Source: Caldisphaera sp. (GTDB taxonomy: Archaea; Thermoproteota; Thermoprotei_A; Sulfolobales; Acidilobaceae). From it: a DNA stretch of 21,588 bases. Location: assembly GCA_049971805.1 (NCBI GenBank), contig JBMFKU010000021.1, positions 1-21,588 of the forward strand. Direction: 5' to 3'. Below the pieces are notes generated by a model. That model was not told where the DNA came from. It did not search any database and saw only the letters and a program-made list of their open reading frames with translations. The position numbers and the translations under genes were made by a program. Positions within the stretch are counted from its first letter, which is position 1. Each line of letters starts with the position of its first letter. Below, in pieces: positions 5,331 to 21,288 of the stretch.

Positions 5331-5715
5331 TCATCTTATCTTCATTCAGGAACCACAGGATTTACTAAAGCTGTGCACTTTACCTATAGACAAATAATAC
5401 TACAGTCAATAATAAGCGGCATAGTTGTTACAGCTTATCTATCTCCAGTTAGAGTATCATCAAAAAATGTCATTATGCACATCCCACCATTCTTCCATGG
5501 GCTAGGATGGATAATGCCTTACTTAGCTACACTTTTAGGAATGAAACAAGTTTTACCTGATAGAACCGATCCCTAGTTATGTTAGACTTAATAAAGAATG
5601 AGAATGTAACTTTTCTGCAGGTGTTCCCACATTTTTGAGAATATTAATAGAACATCCAAAAGCCGGAGAGTACAAAGATGCTCTATAAAATTGTAGAATC
5701 ATTACTGGAGGTTCT
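5331..5715 (+). pseudogene. Middle fragment of the same acyl-CoA ligase
   Basis: AMP-binding motif SGTTGFTKAV, PPFFHGLGW and GMKQVLP, then a stop, GVPTFLRILIEHP and RIITGGS. Confidence 0.8.
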
Positions 5716-6045
5716 CAATAGTTTAGTTATTGAAATAAAAGGCAAAGTATTTTTGTTTATCGTCCTTAAACCGGGTCTACAATTATCAGAAGAATTAAAA
5801 AACAAAATAAATGATAGTCTAAAGCGTAATTTAGGTGCTTATTTCATTGCAGATTATATAATCCAAGTACCAGACATAGCTCAGACATTTAATTTCAAAA
5901 AGTTAGAAGTTCCTGTAAAAAAAGCACTTTTAGGGTGGGAAATAAACAAATCGGTAAACCTAGCTAATGCTATTAATCCAGATTCTTTTTTAGGCTTATA
6001 GAGATAGCTAAGCCATATGTAGAACAAATAAAAGAAGAAAACTAA
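5708..6045 (+). pseudogene. 3' fragment of an acetoacetyl-CoA synthetase-like gene
   Basis: EVLNSLV...LFIVLKPG...IIQVPDIAQTFNFKKLEVPVKKAL...AINPDS is a typical acetoacetate-CoA ligase C-terminus. A probable frameshift lies in the T-run near 5990. Confidence 0.7.
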
Positions 6046-6105: not shown

Positions 6106-6933
6106 TTATATAGATTTTATTGAATTGGCTGCAATCTTATAATCAATTTCAGGTGTATTACCGGCTATGCCAATAGAACTTAATATACTATGATCTATAA
6201 ATACACCTCCTTGAGTTGTATTAAATCTTTCATTGGATTCTTCTCCATTTGGACATTCAACTACAGAACCAACGTATTTTATGGCATCATGAGAATCTAC
6301 TTTAAATGCTGATGCCGTCCAAGCCCTGCTCCTTGATATCTCAACAAACCCAAATGGTGTATTATCCATTTTATAAATTAGGATTGGCCATCCATCTTTA
6401 TCATTTATAGTAATTGCAACTGGATTAAATTTATTATTATTAACATAACTAATAGCTTTTTCTGCAATATTTCTAGCAATTTCCAAGCCTTTTTCAACTT
6501 TTGTATCAAACTCTTCTTCTCTATATGCACCTGCAAAGCCTGCTTGAGCTATTTTTTCATCACCATCTACAGATTCTCCACTATGACCTATGCCTCCAAC
6601 CACTTCTCCATTAATTATCAAAGGTATTGCGCCATAAATTAAAGTCATCTTACCATGATACTTTACATTTAGCCTACCATACTGTCCTCTAGCTATTACC
6701 TGATCTAAAACCTTAGCAGATAATTTCATTACAGATGCCGTCCAAGCTTTATCTATTGCTAAATCAACAGTAGCTGGTAATGCTACATCTCTTCTTTCCA
6801 TGGCAACAACATGACCTCCTGAATCTGTTACTGCATAGCTTCCAGGTAACATCTCATTATCTATAGAAAATCTTATCATTGCCTTGATTACCTTTCTGGC
6901 CAAACCAAGACTTAAACCATTAGGTATGCTCAT
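6106..6933 (-). CDS. GlcG/HbpS-family (heme-binding, DUF336) protein with two tandem domains
   Basis: Domain 1: AVTDSGGH, AIDKAWTA, GAIPLIINGEVVGGIGHSG, DEKIAQAG. Domain 2: AITINDKDG, SRAWTASAF, GGVFI...IGIAG...DYKIA. It overlaps the upstream gene by 4 nt (ATGA), implying translational coupling. Confidence 0.8.
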   Translation of the reverse strand: MSIPNGLSLGLARKVIKAMIRFSIDNEMLPGSYAVTDSGGHVVAMERRDVALPATVDLAIDKAWTASVMKLSAKVLDQVIARGQYGRLNVKYHGKMTLIYGAIPLIINGEVVGGIGHSGESVDGDEKIAQAGFAGAYREEEFDTKVEKGLEIARNIAEKAISYVNNNKFNPVAITINDKDGWPILIYKMDNTPFGFVEISRSRAWTASAFKVDSHDAIKYVGSVVECPNGEESNERFNTTQGGVFIDHSILSSIGIAGNTPEIDYKIAANSIKSI

Positions 6934-8132
6934 GGTACCACCTCCTTTCTAACATTTGAAAAGTTTTTCTTTTCTACTAAATTAACACCAGATTTATATA
7001 GAAGCTCAACAACTTTTTTACCAAGATATGGAGATGCCGAAACACCTGCAGGACCTAATACTATGTTAATCCAGTACGGAACCAAATCAGGCATACCTAT
7101 AACAAAGTCATGCCACCCTGTATCGGGATTTGTCATAGCCATAAAACCTGTAATGGGCCTTGTAATATGGTTTTCAAATGGTATTTTGGGGAAAAGTTTC
7201 TTTGATACATCAATTGCATGTTTTACTGCATAATCCTTTACTTCTTTATTAGATCTATAGGACATTTCTAGATAAATGCCAGCCAACAATTTATTATCTA
7301 CAGTTGGTGCTATAACTTGTAAATGAGGACTTCCCCTTGGTAGTACAAGAGCTTCATGTTTTATCATTTTTCCCAAATCTTCGTCTAACTCAACAATTGT
7401 ACCTTTAAATGGTACATAAGAAAAATCCCTTGCTTTTACAAGTTCTGCCATCCTGTCTGCTTCTATCCCCGCTGCATTTATAACTAACTTTGATCTTATT
7501 GAAATCTTGTCTGAAATTAATTCAAACTTCCCTAATACCTTATTAATTTTTTTGATTTCTGTATTAAACAAAAAATTAACTCCGTTAGCCTTTGCATTCT
7601 CTGCATATGCTCTTGCTACTTCAGGAGGATCGACTGTTGCTAAATTAGGATCGTAAAGTGCTCCTAAGAATTCATCAGAGATCTCTGGCTCTAAATCTTT
7701 TAGCCCCTTCTTATCAATAAACTTTAAAGGTGTGAAGGATCCTTCTGGTATCAAATTAGGAGATTTAGGATCTAAAGAAGATTTAAATGCCCTTAAATAC
7801 ATCTTTTGGAATTTATTAAAGTCGGAATTATCCCTTATTAACCATAGCCCGCCTATTCTTCTGAATTTAAAATTCAAATCCTCGGCAAGCTTTGGCCATA
7901 AAGGTATGCTCTTTATGTTTAATTCTGCATGCAAGGTACCAGGCCTAAAAGTTAAAGAATCCCCTCCCTGGCAAACAAGGTGATGATTTGTTGCAGTTCC
8001 CTCTAATCCTATACCATTTGTTCTTTCTAAAACGGTAATGGATAAATCATATTTAGATAATTCCCTTGCAATAGATGTTCCGGCAATTCCAGCCCCTATA
8101 ATAGCTACATCTATATCAACAAATTGACTCAT
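6930..8132 (-). CDS. FAD-dependent oxidoreductase, DAO superfamily (GlpA/LhgO-like)
   Basis: Rossmann motif DVAIIGAGIAG, plus VINAAG, PFKG and PAGVSASPYLG. Start ATG 8132 follows a GGGTGA SD. Confidence 0.88.
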   Translation of the reverse strand: MSQFVDIDVAIIGAGIAGTSIARELSKYDLSITVLERTNGIGLEGTATNHHLVCQGGDSLTFRPGTLHAELNIKSIPLWPKLAEDLNFKFRRIGGLWLIRDNSDFNKFQKMYLRAFKSSLDPKSPNLIPEGSFTPLKFIDKKGLKDLEPEISDEFLGALYDPNLATVDPPEVARAYAENAKANGVNFLFNTEIKKINKVLGKFELISDKISIRSKLVINAAGIEADRMAELVKARDFSYVPFKGTIVELDEDLGKMIKHEALVLPRGSPHLQVIAPTVDNKLLAGIYLEMSYRSNKEVKDYAVKHAIDVSKKLFPKIPFENHITRPITGFMAMTNPDTGWHDFVIGMPDLVPYWINIVLGPAGVSASPYLGKKVVELLYKSGVNLVEKKNFSNVRKEVVP

Positions 8133-8262
8133 GTTAAGTACATCACCCACTTTTATTTTACTTATTTAGGATATATAAGTTTTCAAAATCATGTATACTA
8201 TATTGTGCATATCTTAGTTTAATAACTATATTAATTTTACATAATTATCAAATTTCAAAAAT

Positions 8263-8376
8263 TTATGCTCCTTCAGCAAACGATGATACTTCATACCATT
8301 CTAGCTCACTCTCGTCTCTTTCATTAACGTTGAATTTTATTTTTCTTTCATCTTTCCTATATATTAGAGTGCTCAA
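8263..8376 (-). CDS. Unannotated 37-aa small protein, copy A (MSTLIYRKDERKIKFNVNERDESELEWYEVSSFAEGA)
   Basis: TTG start with an AGGTGA SD, an upstream CTTATAA TATA-like box, and the same length as copies B and C with 19/37 identical residues and no indels. Confidence 0.7.
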   Translation of the reverse strand: MSTLIYRKDERKIKFNVNERDESELEWYEVSSFAEGA

Positions 8377-8556
8377 TTCTTTCACCTATTTAATATATAT
8401 GTAGACGAAACCTTATAAGTAGCTGTACTAGAAAAAATAGACAGTAGTCTGATAACATAGAAATTACAAACTAAAAATTTTAAATTTTATAATCTAGCTT
8501 TATAATAGAGAAATTTAAGAATATTAATAATAAAAATTTTATAAGGTGAAATTTCG

Positions 8557-8987
8557 GTGGTTTTAGATAGTTATCCCAAATTTAAAATAGCTGCTATTTA
8601 AATAGCACAGTATTTTTAGATAGAGATTCTACAATAGAGAAGAGGAAAAAGTATATAGAAGATGCTAAAAGAAAAAGTGCAGATCTCGCTGTCTTTGGAG
8701 AATCTTTTATACCTGCCTTTTCTATATGGAATGGAGGTATACCTTTAACTGATTATAAAGAGGCAAAAATTAAAATATATGCATCAAAAGAAAACAGGCT
8801 CTATATAAGAGTATATAATATATTTTTATCAAACAATATAGACGATCAAATAAAAGATGAAAACATATTTGAAATAAAAACGGGTAGCAATATTATAGAC
8901 ATTTCTCAATTTAAAAACATGATAGTATCGTTTAAACTTCAAAATATCGATGAAAAAAGTTATATGATTATTATGCTTAATAATTAG
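8557..8987 (+). pseudogene. Nitrilase/carbon-nitrogen hydrolase 5' fragment fused to an unrelated 3' gene fragment
   Basis: AGGTGA SD and GTG start. YPKFKIAAI*IA, then after a frameshift VFLDRDSTIEK...ADLAVFGESFIPAF (catalytic Glu region). The frame continues as non-nitrilase sequence to TAG 8987. Confidence 0.7.
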
Positions 8988-9039
8988 ATTCAACAAAAAT
9001 TTAATAATCCAATGTGTAAAAATAATTTGGAAATAAAAG

Positions 9040-9906
9040 TTGAGTTTAATAAGTTATCCCCTAGCGGTGTTACTTGCTTTAGGATCTGGAATAGGATTTG
9101 CTATAAATGATGCAGTCACAAAACTAAAAATTAAAGGAAATAGTTCTATGTCTTTAACATTTGTTTCTCTAATTTTTGGCTTACCAATAATTCTGATTTC
9201 TTTACTAATACCATTAGGCAAATTAACTATGACTCTTAATTCCTTAATTTTTTATCTAATAGCAGGTATAGTTAATTTTACTATTGGAAGATCTTCTTTA
9301 TATGCCTCAATATCAAGATTAAGCTCAAGTGGAGGAAGCATATTGTCTAGTACAAGCGCTTTGTTTGGATTCTTAATGGGATGGATTTTATTAGATGAAA
9401 AAGTAACAGTAATTATGGCAATAGGCGTAATTTTAATCATGATAAGCGTCTATATAGCCTCCGGCGGATTTAAAAATAATTTGTCATTGACGGGAATTAT
9501 CTTTGGCCTAATAACAGGTCTTTCAATAGCCATTGCTGTAGTTCTAATTAAATTAGGAGATCAGAATGGCGGGCAACCAGTTTTGGGCACATTGATCGCA
9601 TACTTATCTGGTATTGCATTTAGTTACATTGGATTTAAAAGAAATCCTATAAAAGTAATAGAATTAAAAAGATTGGCTTTTCCATTGGCTATAATGGGAA
9701 CAGCTGCAGCAGCAGGGCAAATTATGAGATATATTGCATTATTGACTGCAGAAGCAAGTGTTGTCGCACCATTGCAAAATATAAGACCTGTTGTAGCAAC
9801 ATTTATTTTATTGGCTTTTGGTGTAGAAGATAAAAAGCCAAAGAAATATCACTGGATAGCTGCTATATTAGCAAGTATAGGCGCAGCATTAGTTAGTATA
9901 AAATAA
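9040..9906 (+). CDS. EamA/DMT family transporter
   Basis: About 10 hydrophobic segments in two repeats; LMGWILLDEKV and AEASVVAPL are EamA-type motifs. Confidence 0.85.
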   Translation: MSLISYPLAVLLALGSGIGFAINDAVTKLKIKGNSSMSLTFVSLIFGLPIILISLLIPLGKLTMTLNSLIFYLIAGIVNFTIGRSSLYASISRLSSSGGSILSSTSALFGFLMGWILLDEKVTVIMAIGVILIMISVYIASGGFKNNLSLTGIIFGLITGLSIAIAVVLIKLGDQNGGQPVLGTLIAYLSGIAFSYIGFKRNPIKVIELKRLAFPLAIMGTAAAAGQIMRYIALLTAEASVVAPLQNIRPVVATFILLAFGVEDKKPKKYHWIAAILASIGAALVSIK

Positions 9907-9966
9907 TTTGAAAAAAGAAATAGGAAATATATTATAAATTAATATCAAGACACTTTACTAAAAATT

Positions 9967-10200
9967 TTACATATATCCTTTAAATTCCTTTCCACTTTTC
10001 AGCATGTTTCTAATTTCTCTTTTCAATATCTTCCCAGATGGTGATTTTGGCAAGGAATCAACAAATATTATTTCTTTAGGTGCTTTGAAATGAGCTAAAT
10101 TATTTCTAGCAAATTCCATTATTTCTTTCCTCAATTCTTCACTTTTCTCATAGTTATCCTTTAAAACTATAACAGCAACAACCCTTTCAATCCACTTCTC
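9967..10200 (-). pseudogene. 3' fragment of an acyl-CoA synthetase
   Basis: EKWIERVVAVIVLK...LAHFKAPKEIIFVDSLPKSPSGKILKREIR is an AMP-binding C-terminal domain. Confidence 0.8.
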
Positions 10201-10635
10201 ATTTTTGCTTATAAATTTTAAATGTTCAAATGATCCTTTCGGTATTAAATAAGGAGATTTAGGATCTAAAGAAGATTTAAATGCCCTTAAATGCATTTTT
10301 TGAAACTTATTGTAATCTTGGTTATCTCTTATTAACCACAAACCTCCTATTCTCCTAAATCTGAATTTTAATTCGTCAGCAAGTTTAGGCCATAAGGGTA
10401 TACTTTTTATGTTTAATTCTGCATGCAAGGTACCAGGCCTAAAAGTTAAAAAGTTAAAGAGTCTCCTCTCTGACAAACAAGGTGATGATTTGTTGACGTG
10501 CCTTCTAATCCTATACCATTTTTTCTTTCTATAACTGTAACTGATAAATCATATCTAGACAATTCCCTAGCCAATGGATGTTCCAGCAATTCCTGCTCCT
10601 ATTATAGCTATATCCGTATTAATAAATTGAGGCAT
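10201..10635 (-). pseudogene. Frameshifted, 3'-truncated paralog of the FAD oxidoreductase at 6930-8132
   Basis: MPQFINTDIAIIGAGIAGTS, NHHLVCQ and LTFRPGTLHAELNIKSIPLWPKLA are near-identical to the intact gene. Frameshifts occur near 10575 and 10441-10458 (AAAAGTT duplication). Confidence 0.88.
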
Positions 10636-10756
10636 ATTAATACACCTACTTTAAATTTATTTTTTAAAATATATATCTTTTTAAAATTGTGTATACTATA
10701 TTGCGCATACCTTAATTAATAAATAACATTACATTTTATATAATTATAATATAAAA

Positions 10757-10946
10757 AATTATGATCCTTCAGCAAATGATGTTACCATATACCAATCTAA
10801 TTTGTTTTCATCTTCTCTTTCCATTTTGAAATTTATTTTCTTTTTGTTTTCCTCATATATTACAGTGCTCATCTCTTTCACCCATTTAATATATATCTGA
10901 CGAAACTTTATAAGTAGATGCGCAAGAAAAAATAGACAAATGTCTA
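10757..10946. repeat. 190-bp exact direct repeat, left copy
   Basis: Identical by eye to 12466-12655 (offset 1709). Confidence 0.95.
10759..10872 (-). CDS. 37-aa small protein, copy B (MSTVIYEENKKKINFKMEREDENKLDWYMVTSFAEGS)
   Basis: ATG 10872 has a GGGTGA SD and a CTTATAAA TATA-like box. The 74-aa ORF-track extension is not conserved in the other copies. Confidence 0.7.
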   Translation of the reverse strand: MSTVIYEENKKKINFKMEREDENKLDWYMVTSFAEGS

Positions 10947-11073
10947 TTAATAAAAATACTAATTTATTGATCATTATTTCCATTAATATAGCTTACTTGT
11001 GAACTAAACAATGATTTTTATATTAAACAAACAAGATAATATATTAAACAAACTTTTATAGCCATACTTAAGT

Positions 11074-12405
11074 TTACCATATCAAGTGACCACAATCAAA
11101 TCTAACTAGATATTTGATATTGCCTACTAATGCCTTTCCCTTTCCACAAATGGGACAAGCTTCTTCATTAAATTTAAACTCTTTATATAAAGTGATTAAC
11201 GTAGGATCGTTTAATTTATAAATATTATTTTCTTCTCTCAAAACAAAATCCATTTCTTCCAATTTATTTAAAATTTTTTTAGCCTCTTTTATATCGCATT
11301 TTAATTCATTTGAAAGATCGTAAGGTTTAACTTCTTTCTTTTTGAGGATAGTTTGTATAGCATTGTAGTAATATTGATCTTTCTTTATTCTCTTAATTGT
11401 GTTTATTTCCTCTCTTATTGACTTTCCTACTTCTTTATAAGACTTCGTTATGGCATCAATAATTCTTTTCTTAACGTCTGATTCCTTACTTTCAACATAA
11501 TTCTTTCCTAATAACGCTAACCAGCCGGGTATTCTATAAGTTAGGTTTATTGCTGAAGAAATTACCCAGTCATCATATTTTGCTTCAGCTGAATCAAAGC
11601 CTTCTTTTAGCATTTTTATTGAGTCTTCAACAGTTATTTCCCTTAATTTGTAAGTGATTATTTCTCTACCGTGAAGTTCACTTTCATATTTATGTGAAAC
11701 TAACATTTCTACTGGTCTAACTAATGAGCCTGTTATCATAACTTTGAAGGTTTCTTGATACTCGTCGTTTATAGTTTTTAGGAATTGAATGAAATCTTGT
11801 GCCCAACTATAAGCTCTCTGTGCTTCATCAATAACTAATGCTATCTTCGATTTAGATGTTATAGCTGCATCTTCCAATATTTTTAAGGTTATTTTTGGTT
11901 CAACTATCTTTTCTACACCTATATCTGAAGAGAACGACAAGCCTTCTATTCCTATTCCAAAGCTCCTTGTATTAGTAAAATTTTCTAATATAATGTTTAA
12001 AAATTTCTTAACATATAATGGATACCTTGTAGAATTTTTTAAATCTCTCCATGTTTTATAGTTAAACTTTTTCCTTCTAAACATTCCTATTTTCGGAATA
12101 GGTAAAAGATTTACAGTTAATCCTTGTAAGTCTTTTATCATATCTAGAGAAATATAAATGGGAATCCAATTCCCTTTAACATCATATATCCTCTTGTACT
12201 TCTCGAATGAAATAATCTTAAGTAAAGTGAGTAAAGTACTGCTTTTTCCTACTCTTCTAGTTCCTTTGAGGAAAAATAAGGTTGCATTTCCTCTTAAAAA
12301 AGACAATAACTCTCTTAAATCATTTTCTCTTCCATAAAGTAATTCAGGATAAAATCTACTGTAAGTTGAGAATATTTCTGTGTAAGATAACCCTTTTTTC
12401 TTCAC
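11074..12405 (-). CDS. Archaeal P-loop ATPase (COG1672/AAA-STAND-like) with C-terminal winged helix and small zinc ribbon
   Basis: Walker A LKGTRRVGKSST, Walker B ALVIDEAQ, ITGS, and IPGWLALLG. The wHTH-like segment is KPYDLSNELKCD...LNKLEEMDFV...YKLNDP, and the terminus has CPICG...DCGH. Confidence 0.85.
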   Translation of the reverse strand: MKKKGLSYTEIFSTYSRFYPELLYGRENDLRELLSFLRGNATLFFLKGTRRVGKSSTLLTLLKIISFEKYKRIYDVKGNWIPIYISLDMIKDLQGLTVNLLPIPKIGMFRRKKFNYKTWRDLKNSTRYPLYVKKFLNIILENFTNTRSFGIGIEGLSFSSDIGVEKIVEPKITLKILEDAAITSKSKIALVIDEAQRAYSWAQDFIQFLKTINDEYQETFKVMITGSLVRPVEMLVSHKYESELHGREIITYKLREITVEDSIKMLKEGFDSAEAKYDDWVISSAINLTYRIPGWLALLGKNYVESKESDVKKRIIDAITKSYKEVGKSIREEINTIKRIKKDQYYYNAIQTILKKKEVKPYDLSNELKCDIKEAKKILNKLEEMDFVLREENNIYKLNDPTLITLYKEFKFNEEACPICGKGKALVGNIKYLVRFDCGHLIW

Positions 12406-12419
12406 ATTAATTCTCGCCT

Positions 12420-12445
12420 AGTTTAGTCCACTAGTGGACTAAACT
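12420..12445. promoter_or_regulatory. Perfect 26-bp palindrome, likely operator of the ATPase gene
   Basis: AGTTTAGTCCACTAGTGGACTAAACT is its own reverse complement. It lies between a minus-strand TTTATTAA box (12445-12452) and the GTG start at 12405. Confidence 0.7.
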
Positions 12446-12465
12446 TAATAAATTTTTATGTTAAG

Positions 12466-12655
12466 AATTATGATCCTTCAGCAAATGATGTTACCATATA
12501 CCAATCTAATTTGTTTTCATCTTCTCTTTCCATTTTGAAATTTATTTTCTTTTTGTTTTCCTCATATATTACAGTGCTCATCTCTTTCACCCATTTAATA
12601 TATATCTGACGAAACTTTATAAGTAGATGCGCAAGAAAAAATAGACAAATGTCTA
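12466..12655. repeat. 190-bp exact direct repeat, right copy
   Basis: Identical to 10757-10946. Confidence 0.95.
12468..12581 (-). CDS. 37-aa small protein, copy C (identical to copy B)
   Basis: Lies within the 190-bp repeat: ATG 12581, TAA 12470-12468. Confidence 0.7.
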   Translation of the reverse strand: MSTVIYEENKKKINFKMEREDENKLDWYMVTSFAEGS

Positions 12656-12821
12656 GTTAAAAACATTCAAACCATATTATAAAATCATTATATATTAAAT
12701 GTTTGAAAGAAATATATATCATACTTATAGATTTATCTTTAATATATTTAATTAAAAAGAAAAATATTTATACTTATTGTATACACTTAATACATTTTGT
12801 AGTAACGAGGTGAAATATAAT

Positions 12822-14212
12822 ATGAGTACTGTAGAAAGTGGATCTGGTGATAAATCTGGTAAAACAATTTTTTGGATAGCAAGTTCGATTTTATTTGTAA
12901 TTGCATTAATAATGTTGATCTATGGTATCTACCAACAAACAGTTCTTCATATTTATAAAGCACCCTTAATCTTAGGTATAGTTGCAGGTCTTTTGCTGGC
13001 TATTCCTCTAGAACTATGGAATTTCTCAGATCCTGACACATTATTTAGAGTGATGTCATTCCAAGATAGATTTTTAATGGTTTGTTTTGGATTTGCAATT
13101 GGGTTAGGAGCAATACTTCTTTACGGCTTAAATCTATTTGTACTCATCCAAATTTTGGCATAAAAGATTTGTTTGTATTTGGTATAGTCATAGGAGGTTT
13201 AATATTTGGAGCAGGAGTAGGTATTGCTGGGTATTTCCCAGGCACAGTATGGATAGCATTAGGCCAAGGTAGACGCGATGCAATTTACGCTGTAATAGGC
13301 GGCCTATTCGGTGCCTTTACATGGTCAGTAATTTTTGGTAATGTTAGATGGTTATTTTGGAATACTTTAAATTTTGGACCCATAACATGGGCAACATTGT
13401 TAGGATTTAACACAAGGCTTGAAATGTTTTTAGTCAGTATAGTATTTGGAATCTTATTATTGCTAATGTTCTTCTTTTTGCCAAGATATCCAAAACAATC
13501 TATGAAACAATCATGCGCATTTCACTTGGTTGGGGCAAATAAAGAAACAACAAAATTTAGTGATCTATTAAAAGAAGAAGAAAAGAAATATCCAAAGGCT
13601 AGAAAATATATTACAGAACTAATAAATGAAAGCAGTATAAGAAATGCTAGATCTATAATACTATTAGGTATAGAATTCACTATAGCAGCAGTTGCAGTAA
13701 TAATATTGAGACAAATATTTGGAGAATCAACAACATATTCTTGGATAGGAGCACAACTATCTTATTTAATAAATCCTAAATGGGCTGCATCGAATGCTTA
13801 TTTCCAATTATTTGGAGGATTACATATAGTTAACGGTTCACCAGTTAATAACCCATTTAGTGAAATAGGTTGGGAGCCTTTTTCAGATTTAGGCACCTTC
13901 TTAGGAGGTCTTATTTCATCATTATTTATTAGCAAAAGATTCATGGGATTTAAAAAACAAATACCAAATGTATGGCAACACACTTTCGGTACTTCAGCCA
14001 GCAAGAGAGCTTTAGGATCATTCATAGGTACATTTATGGTCTTATTCGGTGCAAGGATGGCTAACGGTTGTGCTTCAGGTCATATATTAAGTGGAAACAT
14101 ACAAATGGCAGTTTCTAGCTTTCTATTTATGATAATGGTGTTAATAGGATCTTGGATAGCACTTAGATATGTGCTACATTTAAAAATAAACTCTCAAGGA
14201 TATGTTCAGTAA
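12822..14212 (+). pseudogene. YeeE/YedE-family sulfur-compound transporter with a single frameshift near 13140 (pseudogene or sequencing error)
   Basis: GAGGTGA SD before ATG 12822. YeeE motifs GGLIFGAGVGIAGYFPGT and LFGARMANGCASGH. Two overlapping ORFs join if 1 nt is added near 13140. Confidence 0.75.
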
Positions 14213-16013: not shown

Positions 16014-16491
16014 ATGAGCAATGAAAAAATAAAAGTAGGCAGTAAAGCACCTCTTTTTGAAGCAATAGCAGATAACGGAGAAAAAATTTCGTTAGCAAAT
16101 TATATTGGAAAATACAAATATAGTACTATATTTTTACCCTAAAGACTTCAGCCCTGTTTGTACTAAAGAAGCGTGTTCGTTTAGAGATAATTGGGATAAA
16201 TTAAAAGATTACAATGCTATAGTGATAGGTATAAGTTCTGATAACCTAGAAACTCATAAAAGGTTTAAAGAAAAATACAAAATACCATTCATATTATTAA
16301 GTGATTCAAAAAAAGAAATTAGGAAAAAGTACAACGCTGAAGGCTTTATATTTGCTGATAGAGTAACTTTTGTTATAGATAAAAATGGTATAATAAGAAG
16401 CATTTACAAGTCTCAATTCAACATCGAAGCTCACATAAACAATGCGCTAGAAACATTAAAATCGCTAAGCGTAAAAAATGAGTCTAAATAA
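16014..16491 (+). pseudogene. bcp: Peroxiredoxin Q/BCP with a +1 frameshift near 16117 (pseudogene or sequencing error)
   Basis: AGGTGA SD and ATG 16014. IKVGSKAPLF is in one frame and [23 protein letters not shown] (CxxxxC) in the next; one extra A in TACAAATATA explains the shift. Confidence 0.8.
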
Positions 16492-17267: not shown

Positions 17268-17612
17268 ATGGTGTCAAATTTGGGCTTACGAGACCCTATC
17301 GAATATATAAATAGTTTAAGAGATGGAAGGATTATATATTATAGAGGTAAAAAAGTAGAAGATGTAACAAAACACGAGGTTTTAAAATCAACAGTAAATC
17401 ATACATCTTTGATATATAAATGGCAACAAGATGATGAAAAAATAAGAGAATTAACTGTATATAAAGATGAAGTATACGGCTATTCTAGCAAATTTTATAA
17501 AATACCTAGATTAGGAGCTTTGTTTACTACTGCAATGATACATGCAGAAGGATCTATAGATCATATGATTATGAAGGAAGCAAGAAATTGGCTTACTATG
17601 CTTCCGAATTAA
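17268..17612 (+). pseudogene. Internally deleted 4-hydroxybutyryl-CoA dehydratase / HpaB-family gene
   Basis: The N-terminus EYINSLRDGRIIYYRGKKVEDVTKH...SKFYKIPR jumps directly to the C-terminal motif AMIHAEGS. The ORF is 114 aa, against roughly 480 aa for the family. Confidence 0.7.
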
Positions 17613-20320: not shown

Positions 20321-21288
20321 TTAAACATTGTATATATTTTTATACTGGGCTCTAATAGTTTTTTTATCAAATTTTCCTGTACTTGTCTTCGGTATTTCAT
20401 TTACAAAGAATATCTTATCTGGAATCTGCCATTTAGCAAATCTTTTTGACAAGTGTTCCTTTAATTCTTTTTCAAGCTCATTAAAATCTTTATTTTTATA
20501 CTGTTCTCTTAACACAACTAGAGCAATGGGTCTTTCTTCCCATTTAGGATGTGGAACACCTACTACCGATGCTTCTAAAACTGCAGGATGAGCCATTAAG
20601 TAGTTTTCCAAATCTATACTAGAAATCCATTCGCCTCCACTTTTTATTAGATCTTTTATTCTGTCTACAATTTTTATATACCCATTCTCATCAATAGTTG
20701 CAGCATCTCCAGACTTCCACCAATTATCAACAAAGGATTCCTTACTTCTTTCATCATTATAATATTGATTTGCTATCCACGGGCCTTTTATCAAAAGTTC
20801 CCCAACACTTTTTCCATCCCATGGAAGCTCTCTTCCTGCAGGATCTACAATCTTTACTTCAACCCCAAATAGTGGCAACCCTTGCTTTCTGGCATTTTCT
20901 ATTTGATCTTGTTCGCTCATTTGCTTTATCTTTTTCTTCGGTAAATTGGCTACAATTAGTGGAGCTGTTTCTGTTGCTCCATATGCATGTACTATGTTTA
21001 TCCCAAATTCTTTTAACTGCATCATTAAGGCTAAAGGTGGTTCCGTTGCTCCTGAAAGGAACCTTAAATTATTTAGCTTTGGCTTAGGTTCTATCTTCCT
21101 GAAAACTTCTAATAAAGGAATTAATATCGCAGGTGCTCCCGCTGATACTATAACTCCTTCATTTATTAAGATATTGGCTAAACTTTCAGGTGTGTATCTT
21201 CCTGGTAAAACAATTTTTGATCCCATCATAGTCGCAGCAATATGGAATCCCCAACCATTTGCATGGAATAAAGGAACTACAGCTGCTC
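20321..21288 (-). pseudogene. 5'-truncated long-chain fatty acid-CoA ligase
   Basis: The frame extends upstream only to AAVVPLFHANGWG and has no SGTTG motif. It contains HAYGATET, WKSGD, DRIKDLIKSGGEWISS and IPKTSTGK. Confidence 0.8.

Follow-up and report, generated by a model that had tools for sequence, protein, structure and literature searches.

CopG, with 45 amino acids (aa), is among the smallest natural proteins of the ribbon-helix-helix (RHH) type, and the tetramerisation domain of p53 forms a stable oligomer from ~30 residues arranged as a strand, a tight turn and an amphipathic helix. The small RHH regulators of Sulfolobales known as aCcr1 bind promoter motifs; the preprint that describes them gives a length of 59 aa for SIRV2 gp21 and the motif AGTATTA (bioRxiv 10.1101/2022.07.28.501860). 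Here, we analyzed a 21,588-nucleotide (nt) stretch of the genome of Caldisphaera sp. (family Acidilobaceae; contig JBMFKU010000021.1, hereafter the window), in which three gene copies, termed A, B and C, each encode a 37-residue protein and are preceded by a TATA box and a 14-bp palindrome. The best explanation overall, which we put forward tentatively, is that these open reading frames (ORFs) are real gene cassettes of a conserved small protein that is negatively autoregulated through its own palindrome.

Like the small RHH regulators of the RHH_1/CopG/Arc type, the protein is tiny and stand-alone, and it is predicted to run from a basic N-terminus through a strand into an acidic helix that reaches a Gly-x-small turn; a palindromic site likewise lies in its own promoter. 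In contrast to those regulators, it has no second helix, gives no significant match and varies at the putative DNA-facing positions. Size and life-style are common to the protein and the aCcr1 regulators, whereas sequence, fold completeness and motif are not, the motif AGTATTA being unrelated to TAGAC-N4-GTCTA. The p53 tetramerisation domain is similar in size and layout and is foldable by self-association, but it has no sequence relation to the protein and is offered as an analogy only.

The three genes, taken from the ORF list, are as follows.

8263-8376, minus strand: copy A, small-protein gene of 37 codons plus stop, with a TTG start.
10759-10872, minus strand: copy B, small-protein gene with an ATG start.
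12468-12581, minus strand: copy C, small-protein gene with an ATG start, encoding a protein identical to that of B.

The protein of copy A is MSTLIYRKDERKIKFNVNERDESELEWYEVSSFAEGA, and MSTVIYEENKKKINFKMEREDENKLDWYMVTSFAEGS is encoded by both B and C. An initial annotation of this DNA had described three 114-nt ORFs, each with a GGTGA ribosome-binding sequence, a TATA-like box and an AGAC-N4-GTCT palindrome, and these coordinates and elements were borne out, all on the minus strand. Its alignment of A and B was also reproduced: 19 of 37 residues (51%) were identical with zero indels, a similarity far above chance (E 3.4e-9 in a search of the whole genome) in a family that recurs across genera. 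Its count of three copies holds for the window but not for the host genome (G000; 1.52 Mb, 66 contigs, 31% GC), in which the whole-genome search revealed four. The fourth copy (G000:C24:7869-7979; locus L002, 1501-1611, plus strand) was identical to A in both protein and promoter. On the strand opposite to B and C, we also noted a 32-codon hydrophobic ORF (10802-10900 and 12511-12609, plus strand), which probably arises automatically from the Lys/Glu-rich codons of the sense strand.

With protein A as a single query, 16 of 61 related genomes gave a match, including all six (6/6) of the same genus. A profile built from 48 sequences, which copies A and B/C matched with E values of 2.1e-13 and 3.9e-14 (positions 1/2-42), recovered the family in 33 of the 39 other genomes of Acidilobaceae; among 211 genomes from twelve further families of the same order, only 3 were matched, all weakly (E 2e-4 to 4e-3). 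The copy number was 1-4 in this genus and nearly always one outside it. Two of the weak matches, L030 (G043:C38:77446-77550) and L031 (G047:C2:19013-19111), with E values of 2e-4 to 3e-4, lie in two other families of the order; these frames of 47-50 aa have the motif Y-[E/D]-Y-Y and a tail that is similar, though divergent, and in one of them a TAGAC lies near a TATA box. They may be distant relatives, in which case the family would be wider than the profile shows.

In a library of 1.84 billion proteins, 38 clusters were matched at E<=1e-3, 37 of which were 35-49 aa long. The possibility that the protein is a fragment of a longer known one, which the initial annotation had named as a reason to abandon it, was not borne out, as the sole longer match was a 946-aa protein (E 3.2e-4) covered in 7 short stretches, which we took as compositional. 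A word-indexed search returned 32 proteins whose names were only 'hypothetical protein' of Caldisphaera lagunensis, Acidilobus and Acidilobaceae metagenome-assembled genomes (MAGs), and a scan of genome contigs added further Acidilobaceae, 'Desulfurococcales' and 'Thermodiscus' MAG records. The hypothetical proteins of Caldisphaera lagunensis (40 aa), Acidilobus (41 aa) and the Acidilobaceae/'Desulfurococcales' MAGs were full-length profile matches (E 1e-9 to 1e-15). They have in common with the window copies the length class, the end K/R-D-E-x-E-L-[D/E]-W-Y...G-x-G-[A/C/S] and the promoter of operator, TATA box and Shine-Dalgarno sequence, and differ in the tail, which is AEGA or AEGS in this genus and GLGA or GLGC in the other Acidilobaceae. 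The gene had been called unannotated, which is true in that it belongs to no named family but not in that homologues elsewhere are annotated as hypothetical proteins; the family is thus already in databases, though unnamed, not covered by Pfam and with no function described. Among viral contigs, 29 pattern matches yielded 0 confirmed relatives, and a full-text literature search, going by its search results only, turned up no paper on this small protein.

The relatives were free-standing proteins of 35-49 aa, and their frames all stopped after G-[A/C/S] (rarely after A-A or G-V). Amino-acid motif and stop position were held from 31% GC to the GC-rich genera while the codons changed. In the 48-sequence alignment, D21 was invariant and L25, Y28 and G36 were conserved in at least 90% of the sequences, giving the consensus R-x-x-F-x-V-T-x-x-D-E-E-E-L-D-W-Y-x-x-S-x-x-G-L-G-A. 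Both window variants contained the C-terminal motif D-x-E-x-L-[D/E]-[W/Y]-Y ... G-[A/C/S]-stop, and the N-terminal third was variable in sequence and length. Ratios of nonsynonymous to synonymous substitution rates (dN/dS), obtained as Nei-Gojobori estimates, were 0.18 and 0.11 for A against its orthologues L005 and L006, 0.16 and 0.19 for L021 against L009 and L010, and 0.22 for L009 against L010, with the orthologue substitutions concentrated at third codon positions. The claim of a real small protein was therefore upheld by the full-length homologues in most genomes of the family and by orthologue ratios that indicate purifying selection. The proposed dN/dS check gave a less uniform answer among paralogues: the value was 0.44 for A against B and rose to 0.9-1.0 for the B type against other paralogue types, the latter resting on very few sites, and the constraint on that copy type may be relaxed or changed. 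Taken together, the ORFs appear to be functional copies of a gene from the core set of Acidilobaceae, each coding for a soluble protein of ~37-45 residues.

The promoter elements of the window copies are located as follows.

8382-8386, minus strand: Shine-Dalgarno sequence GGTGA of A; at least 80% of the 21 upstream regions aligned have GGTGAA.
8412-8420, minus strand: TATA box CTTATAAGG of A; the CTTATAA block is conserved in at least 80% of the 21 loci.
8438-8451: 14-bp palindromic putative operator of A, CAGACTACTGTCTA on the coding strand, with one mismatch to TAGAC-N4-GTCTA.
10933-10946: perfect palindrome TAGACATTTGTCTA of B.
12642-12655: perfect palindrome of C.

On the coding strand, the order of elements was TAGAC-N4-GTC(T/G)A, ~19 nt, CTTATAA, a T..G.C block, ~25 nt, GGTGAA, 5-7 nt and the start codon. 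In the window copies, the palindrome read (T/C)AGAC-N4-GTCTA and the TATA box CTTATAA(G/A)G, with 33 nt from the start of the palindrome to the TATA box, and GGTGA lay 6-7 nt ahead of the start codon. This fixed spacing of TAGAC....G.C.A, CTTATAA and GGTGAA was kept in the 21 aligned loci from six genera of very different base composition. When the 120 nt upstream of 43 loci were searched, the putative operator was perfect in 13 and had one mismatch in 16 (29/43 with at most one); in the control windows downstream, 0/43 reached this level and none was better than two mismatches, and shuffled upstream sequences had a mean best of 3.4 mismatches. All four copies of the host genome had 0-1 mismatch to the palindrome.

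The occurrence of the palindrome across whole genomes was also examined. In the host genome, AGAC-N4-GTCT was found 13 times against 12.6 expected by composition, and 4 of the 13 were at the peptide genes. Across five further genus genomes, there were 8 occurrences of the perfect 14-mer, 6 of them at peptide promoters and 2 inside long ORFs; one genus genome has zero perfect 14-mers because its operator variant is TAGACAATTGACGA. Across six genus genomes, no intergenic perfect palindrome was found elsewhere, and the 3 outside peptide promoters were in, or apparently in, coding sequence. A 1-mismatch scan that included the TATA spacing gave 6 matches, one of which was copy A and five of which were other candidates. 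At the level of sequence, the palindrome is thus shown to be a site dedicated to the peptide gene and no general promoter motif.

Two further features of the promoter region were observed. In most of the 21 upstream regions, a TCGTC or TCGAC block lay between the TATA box and the ribosome site (e.g., at 8401-8409); it resembles the reverse complement of the right half of the operator (GACGA or GTCGA) and may represent a third half-site that overlaps the start of transcription. The palindrome of C additionally stood at the usual spacing from a plus-strand TATA-like TTATAAA that faces the Sulf_transp genes (12777-14212). In another genome of the genus (G002:C15), the peptide gene likewise adjoined, and was divergent from, a Sulf_transp gene; the plus-strand TATA was examined in the host genome only.

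Comparison of duplicates within genomes delimited the unit to which these elements belong.

8246-8450, minus strand: 205-nt unit of A, from the operator to ~15 nt past the stop; 200/205 positions are common to the copy on contig C24, and the flanks are unrelated.

In three species, within-genome duplicates shared a stretch of ~205-208 nt that began at the palindrome, ran no more than ~20 nt beyond the stop and was bordered by unrelated flanks; identity within it was 200/205 nt in the host genome, 207/208 nt in G002 and 203/205 nt in G001. The unit consisted of the 14-bp palindrome, the TATA box, GGTGA and the ORF, plus a T-run in copies A and B. The ~205-bp unit is shown by its sequence to be self-contained and, as its parts indicate, transcriptionally independent of its neighbours.

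The neighbours at 19 loci in relatives were unrelated to each other. HerA was the neighbour in three species of the genus, seryl-tRNA synthetase and an ABC-2 permease at three loci (and apparently at a fourth, judged from its flank), a phosphodiesterase and a metallo-beta-lactamase in one genus, and a GTPase in another; ArsR and Sulf_transp, archease, glutamyl-tRNA synthetase, TldD and others were also among them. The fourth copy of the host genome lay ~100 nt downstream of a HerA/DUF87 ATPase and faced an MFS transporter, with no oxidoreductase nearby; the order of HerA followed by the peptide gene was also seen in two other species of the genus (L005 and L020). The gap between seryl-tRNA synthetase and ABC-2 measured ~31 nt without a cassette in the host genome (G000:C29:9038-9070) and held the cassette in G003, G005, G006 and apparently G002, which amounts to presence or absence of a ~210-nt unit. 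Such patterns could arise by gene conversion between old paralogues or by copying of some form.

AlphaFold2 modelled copy A as a single helix (residues 19-36 of 37) with an extended N-terminal half, and the mean predicted local distance difference test score was 65 with a 17-sequence alignment and 74 with a 48-sequence alignment. Ahead of the helix, hydrophobic residues alternate (I-x-F-x-V), and a Ser/Thr-x-x-Asp cap comes next. The median net charge was +3 for the N-terminal part, -4 for the C-terminal part and -1 for the whole, the median isoelectric point (pI) was 5.3, and the grand average of hydropathy (GRAVY) ranged from -1.0 to 0.03 over the 48 strongly charged members. The protein is therefore predicted to consist of a net-basic, variable N-terminal part, a short strand, a cap and an acidic amphipathic helix (DExELDWY...) ending in G-x-G-[A/C/S]. 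We take this layout to be comparable to the first half of an RHH domain up to its Gly-x-Ser turn. At E<=0.01, Pfam assigned copies A and B to no family.

Several other identities were considered for the protein and rejected. A mimic of the ribosomal stalk tail did not fit, as the aP1 protein of the host ends in ...VSEGLSGLFGT and the peptide is without the LFG part. A double-glycine leader, a PIP box and a Pup-like or ubiquitin-like tail were judged unfitting in motif spacing or end residues. A type I toxin-like cassette, with a hydrophobic membrane-inserting peptide, did not fit the GRAVY range and the strong charge.

We propose that the protein is probably a small strand-plus-helix regulator and possibly binds its own operator. 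The strand-plus-helix module would self-associate and, through its basic N-terminal part, would sit on the palindrome before its own gene; the cassette would then be a mini-regulator under negative autoregulation, with the build of the first half of an RHH protein. RHH proteins bind a repeated DNA site as a dimer with an antiparallel beta-ribbon, and the one related observation here is the dedicated palindrome. An autoregulator is suggested on grounds of economy: the site accompanies the gene at every locus and in every genus, no gene for a regulator does so, and there is no other intergenic perfect site. Even so, this chain from self-association through palindrome binding to negative autoregulation is a possibility to which we would give somewhat less than an even chance.

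A number of observations weigh against it. The chain ends where the second RHH helix would begin, which makes the canonical RHH fold impossible, and the strand positions that would face the DNA vary within the genus (K/N/T/I/E and N/K/D) despite the constant operator. A median net charge of -1 and a median pI of 5.3 are unusual for a DNA binder. A search for sequencing runs that contain the gene listed none from RNA; one of the DNA runs was a hot-spring metagenome. A Pfam search with the 48 members at E<=10 gave only scattered single matches, with no RHH and no coherent family, and a sequence profile search of the PDB gave only noise (cytochrome c2 and cadherin at E>1) and again no RHH. Two weak pointers do favour an RHH-like first half. 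When the family was aligned by hhalign with six RHH_1 domains of the host genome, the strand and the helix start were in register, but the match was not significant (P 0.054, probability 1%). Atlas feature matches for one member (DUF3950 0.91, DUF2274 0.87, NikA-like 0.86, RHH_1 0.84) are leads only, and an Atlas search with copy A gave nothing usable. Against the proposal, a separate transcription factor with degenerate sites elsewhere may read the palindrome, and the 1-mismatch scan gave a few candidate sites. We do not claim membership of the RHH superfamily because of the missing second helix, the variable strand residues and the lack of a significant match. An RHH domain cut down to strand and one helix, that is, a 37-45-residue 'ribbon-helix' protein assembling on TAGAC-N4-GTCTA, is an unlikely, more specific form of the proposal.

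The reading that fares best besides autoregulation, and is about equally likely, is that the small protein docks on a larger protein, by beta-strand addition and through its D..EL[D/E]WY helix, while the palindrome is recognized by an unlinked factor that turns the peptide gene on or off under some condition; we regard it, too, as possible but tentative. Most characterized proteins of fewer than 50 aa work by binding larger proteins. The best-conserved residues of the family (D21, L25, Y28 and G36) lie in the helix and cap, while the N-terminal third varies; the predicted monomer folds no further than one helix, and the putative DNA-facing residues are variable. However, no conserved neighbour nominates a partner, and an unlinked factor should have further sites, whereas the only extra perfect palindromes in the six genus genomes were the 3 in, or apparently in, coding sequence.

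A quite improbable alternative is that the ~205-bp unit is a selfish or mobile cassette, of the addiction type or a miniature element, with the palindrome as its recombination end and the copies reflecting its spread. Copies B and C bear on this question.

10742-10962, minus strand: cassette B, 221 nt, direct repeat of cassette C (repeat family D3, 95% identity).
12451-12671, minus strand: cassette C, 221 nt (repeat family D3, 95% identity).

The two repeats were 95% identical over their 221 nt and fully identical in their ORFs, and they flank an ATPase gene as direct repeats. The sharp edges of the duplicates in three species, which start at the palindrome and enclose the unit only, would also suit a mobile cassette, as would the seryl-tRNA synthetase/ABC-2 gap that is filled in relatives and empty in the host genome. 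Gene conversion between old paralogues nevertheless explains sharp edges equally well, and outside the genus the gene almost always occurs once per genome and most genomes of the family have it, as would be expected of a core gene. No matching repeat at the other end was seen in the flanks, which were inspected by eye only and without a separate repeat search. There was also no adjacent transposase or toxin partner, the protein is hydrophilic, and no viral relative was confirmed.

The initial annotation had named first a link between the peptide and a flavoenzyme/GlcG operon, in which a ribosomally made precursor or substrate peptide would be modified by the adjacent flavin adenine dinucleotide (FAD) oxidoreductase and a double-GlcG protein. 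We consider this link very unlikely; the two other suggestions of that annotation, a small accessory subunit or a regulatory peptide, may still apply. The features concerned, all outside the unit or extending beyond it, are listed below.

6930-8150, minus strand: intact FAD-dependent oxidoreductase (PF01266 DAO; Pfam), neighbour of copy A, outside the unit.
6106-6933: protein with two GlcG/HbpS-like domains (PF03928 in 2 stretches; Pfam), after the oxidoreductase.
7717-8466, minus strand: segment duplicated at 10211-10961 (repeat finder: D1, D2, D4, D5, D6; pieces 73-87% identical).
10201-10641, minus strand: broken duplicate of the oxidoreductase N-terminus (residues 5-148 of 406, 3 in-frame stops; Pfam and ortholog comparison).

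The position and orientation in the initial annotation were correct: a DAO-type FAD oxidoreductase frame of the same orientation follows both A and B at a distance of ~110-130 nt, the intact oxidoreductase is followed by the two-domain GlcG/HbpS-like protein, and the peptide gene is multi-copy, all of which would suit a precursor. The two linkages, however, are one event. A and B both stand beside an oxidoreductase because of the segmental duplication 7717-8466/10211-10961, which copied the promoter-bearing peptide gene together with the 5' part of the DAO oxidoreductase gene and the intergenic region, and the partner of B is the broken fragment. This fragment runs on, in a 169-aa ORF (9967-10476, minus strand), into an AMP-binding_C fragment, so that 9967-10641 is a chimeric pseudogene. 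A TATA-like sequence of its own precedes the intact oxidoreductase, within the 112-nt spacer. The suggested check of co-occurrence also went against the link, as oxidoreductase orthologues were present in 7/7 genus genomes and adjacent to a peptide gene in 1/7, the host genome only; in G002, 3 kb separated the ortholog from the peptide gene, the two being convergent, and the other five genomes had them on different contigs or >1 Mb apart. Copy C and the fourth copy have no oxidoreductase neighbour, and the unrelated neighbours in other genera include no recurring modifying-enzyme family. With adjacency in one of seven genomes and a broken duplicate at B, the precursor reading loses its only support.

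The family also departs from the precursors of ribosomally synthesized and post-translationally modified peptides. It resembles them in being a short multi-copy ORF, two copies of which stand beside an oxidoreductase frame in the window, but it has no conserved modifying-enzyme neighbour and is a core, single-copy gene in most genera. Their leader-plus-core layout is absent: the variable part is N-terminal, conservation runs up to the final residue without a variable core, and nothing follows the G-x-G-[A/C/S] end. The adjacency of the flavoenzyme is shown to be a by-product of local segmental duplication, with no sign of a peptide-modifying pathway. Finally, the idea that the ORFs are untranslated and that the conserved feature is regulatory DNA or a small RNA element is hardly credible. 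The upstream non-coding part is itself strongly conserved, but the amino acids are kept while codons differ between AT-rich and GC-rich genomes, stop and length are kept, orthologue dN/dS is 0.11-0.22, and Rfam and tRNA scans of the window matched nothing.

The remainder of the window was surveyed with Pfam. The interval from A to B contained an EamA transporter, the interval from B to C an archaeal-type ATPase with a winged helix, and the region beyond C the Sulf_transp genes. The gene flanked by cassettes B and C (11074-12405) encodes a 443-aa archaeal-type ATPase with a TrmB-like winged helix and, by eye, a Cys-rich C-terminus; the layout of B, ATPase and C looks like insertion or recombination between cassette copies. 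The ORF-poor stretch between A and the EamA gene held a remnant of a carbon-nitrogen hydrolase (8604-8720, plus strand; PF00795, 18 bits, below the cut-off). Several genes were present as fragments only: AMP-binding_C alone (107 aa, 5678-6001), AhpC/TSA without a start (16105-16491), HpaB_N alone (114 aa, 17268-17612) and the C-terminal half of an acyl-CoA synthetase (20321-21229). Sulf_transp was split into two overlapping ORFs (12777-13163 and 13082-14212), which correspond to a single long ORF in a relative. The window as a whole looks like a zone of rearrangement and gene decay.

These results remove the tempting lead of a new archaeal peptide-modification pathway and illustrate that local duplication can mimic conserved gene linkage. 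What they leave is probably a lineage-specific small protein with a regulatory role, in a size class (<50 residues) that is poorly annotated and hardly studied in archaea. If the 'ribbon-helix' form of the proposal were true, the protein would be the smallest known sequence-specific DNA-binding regulator, and its 205-bp autoregulated unit would pass between loci of Caldisphaera-like genomes by copying or gene conversion. The gene is near-universal in one thermoacidophilic family and has a clearly bounded promoter and a dedicated operator, which makes its function directly testable; the named relatives include cultivable hosts (Caldisphaera lagunensis and Acidilobus), and the protein is short enough for chemical synthesis.

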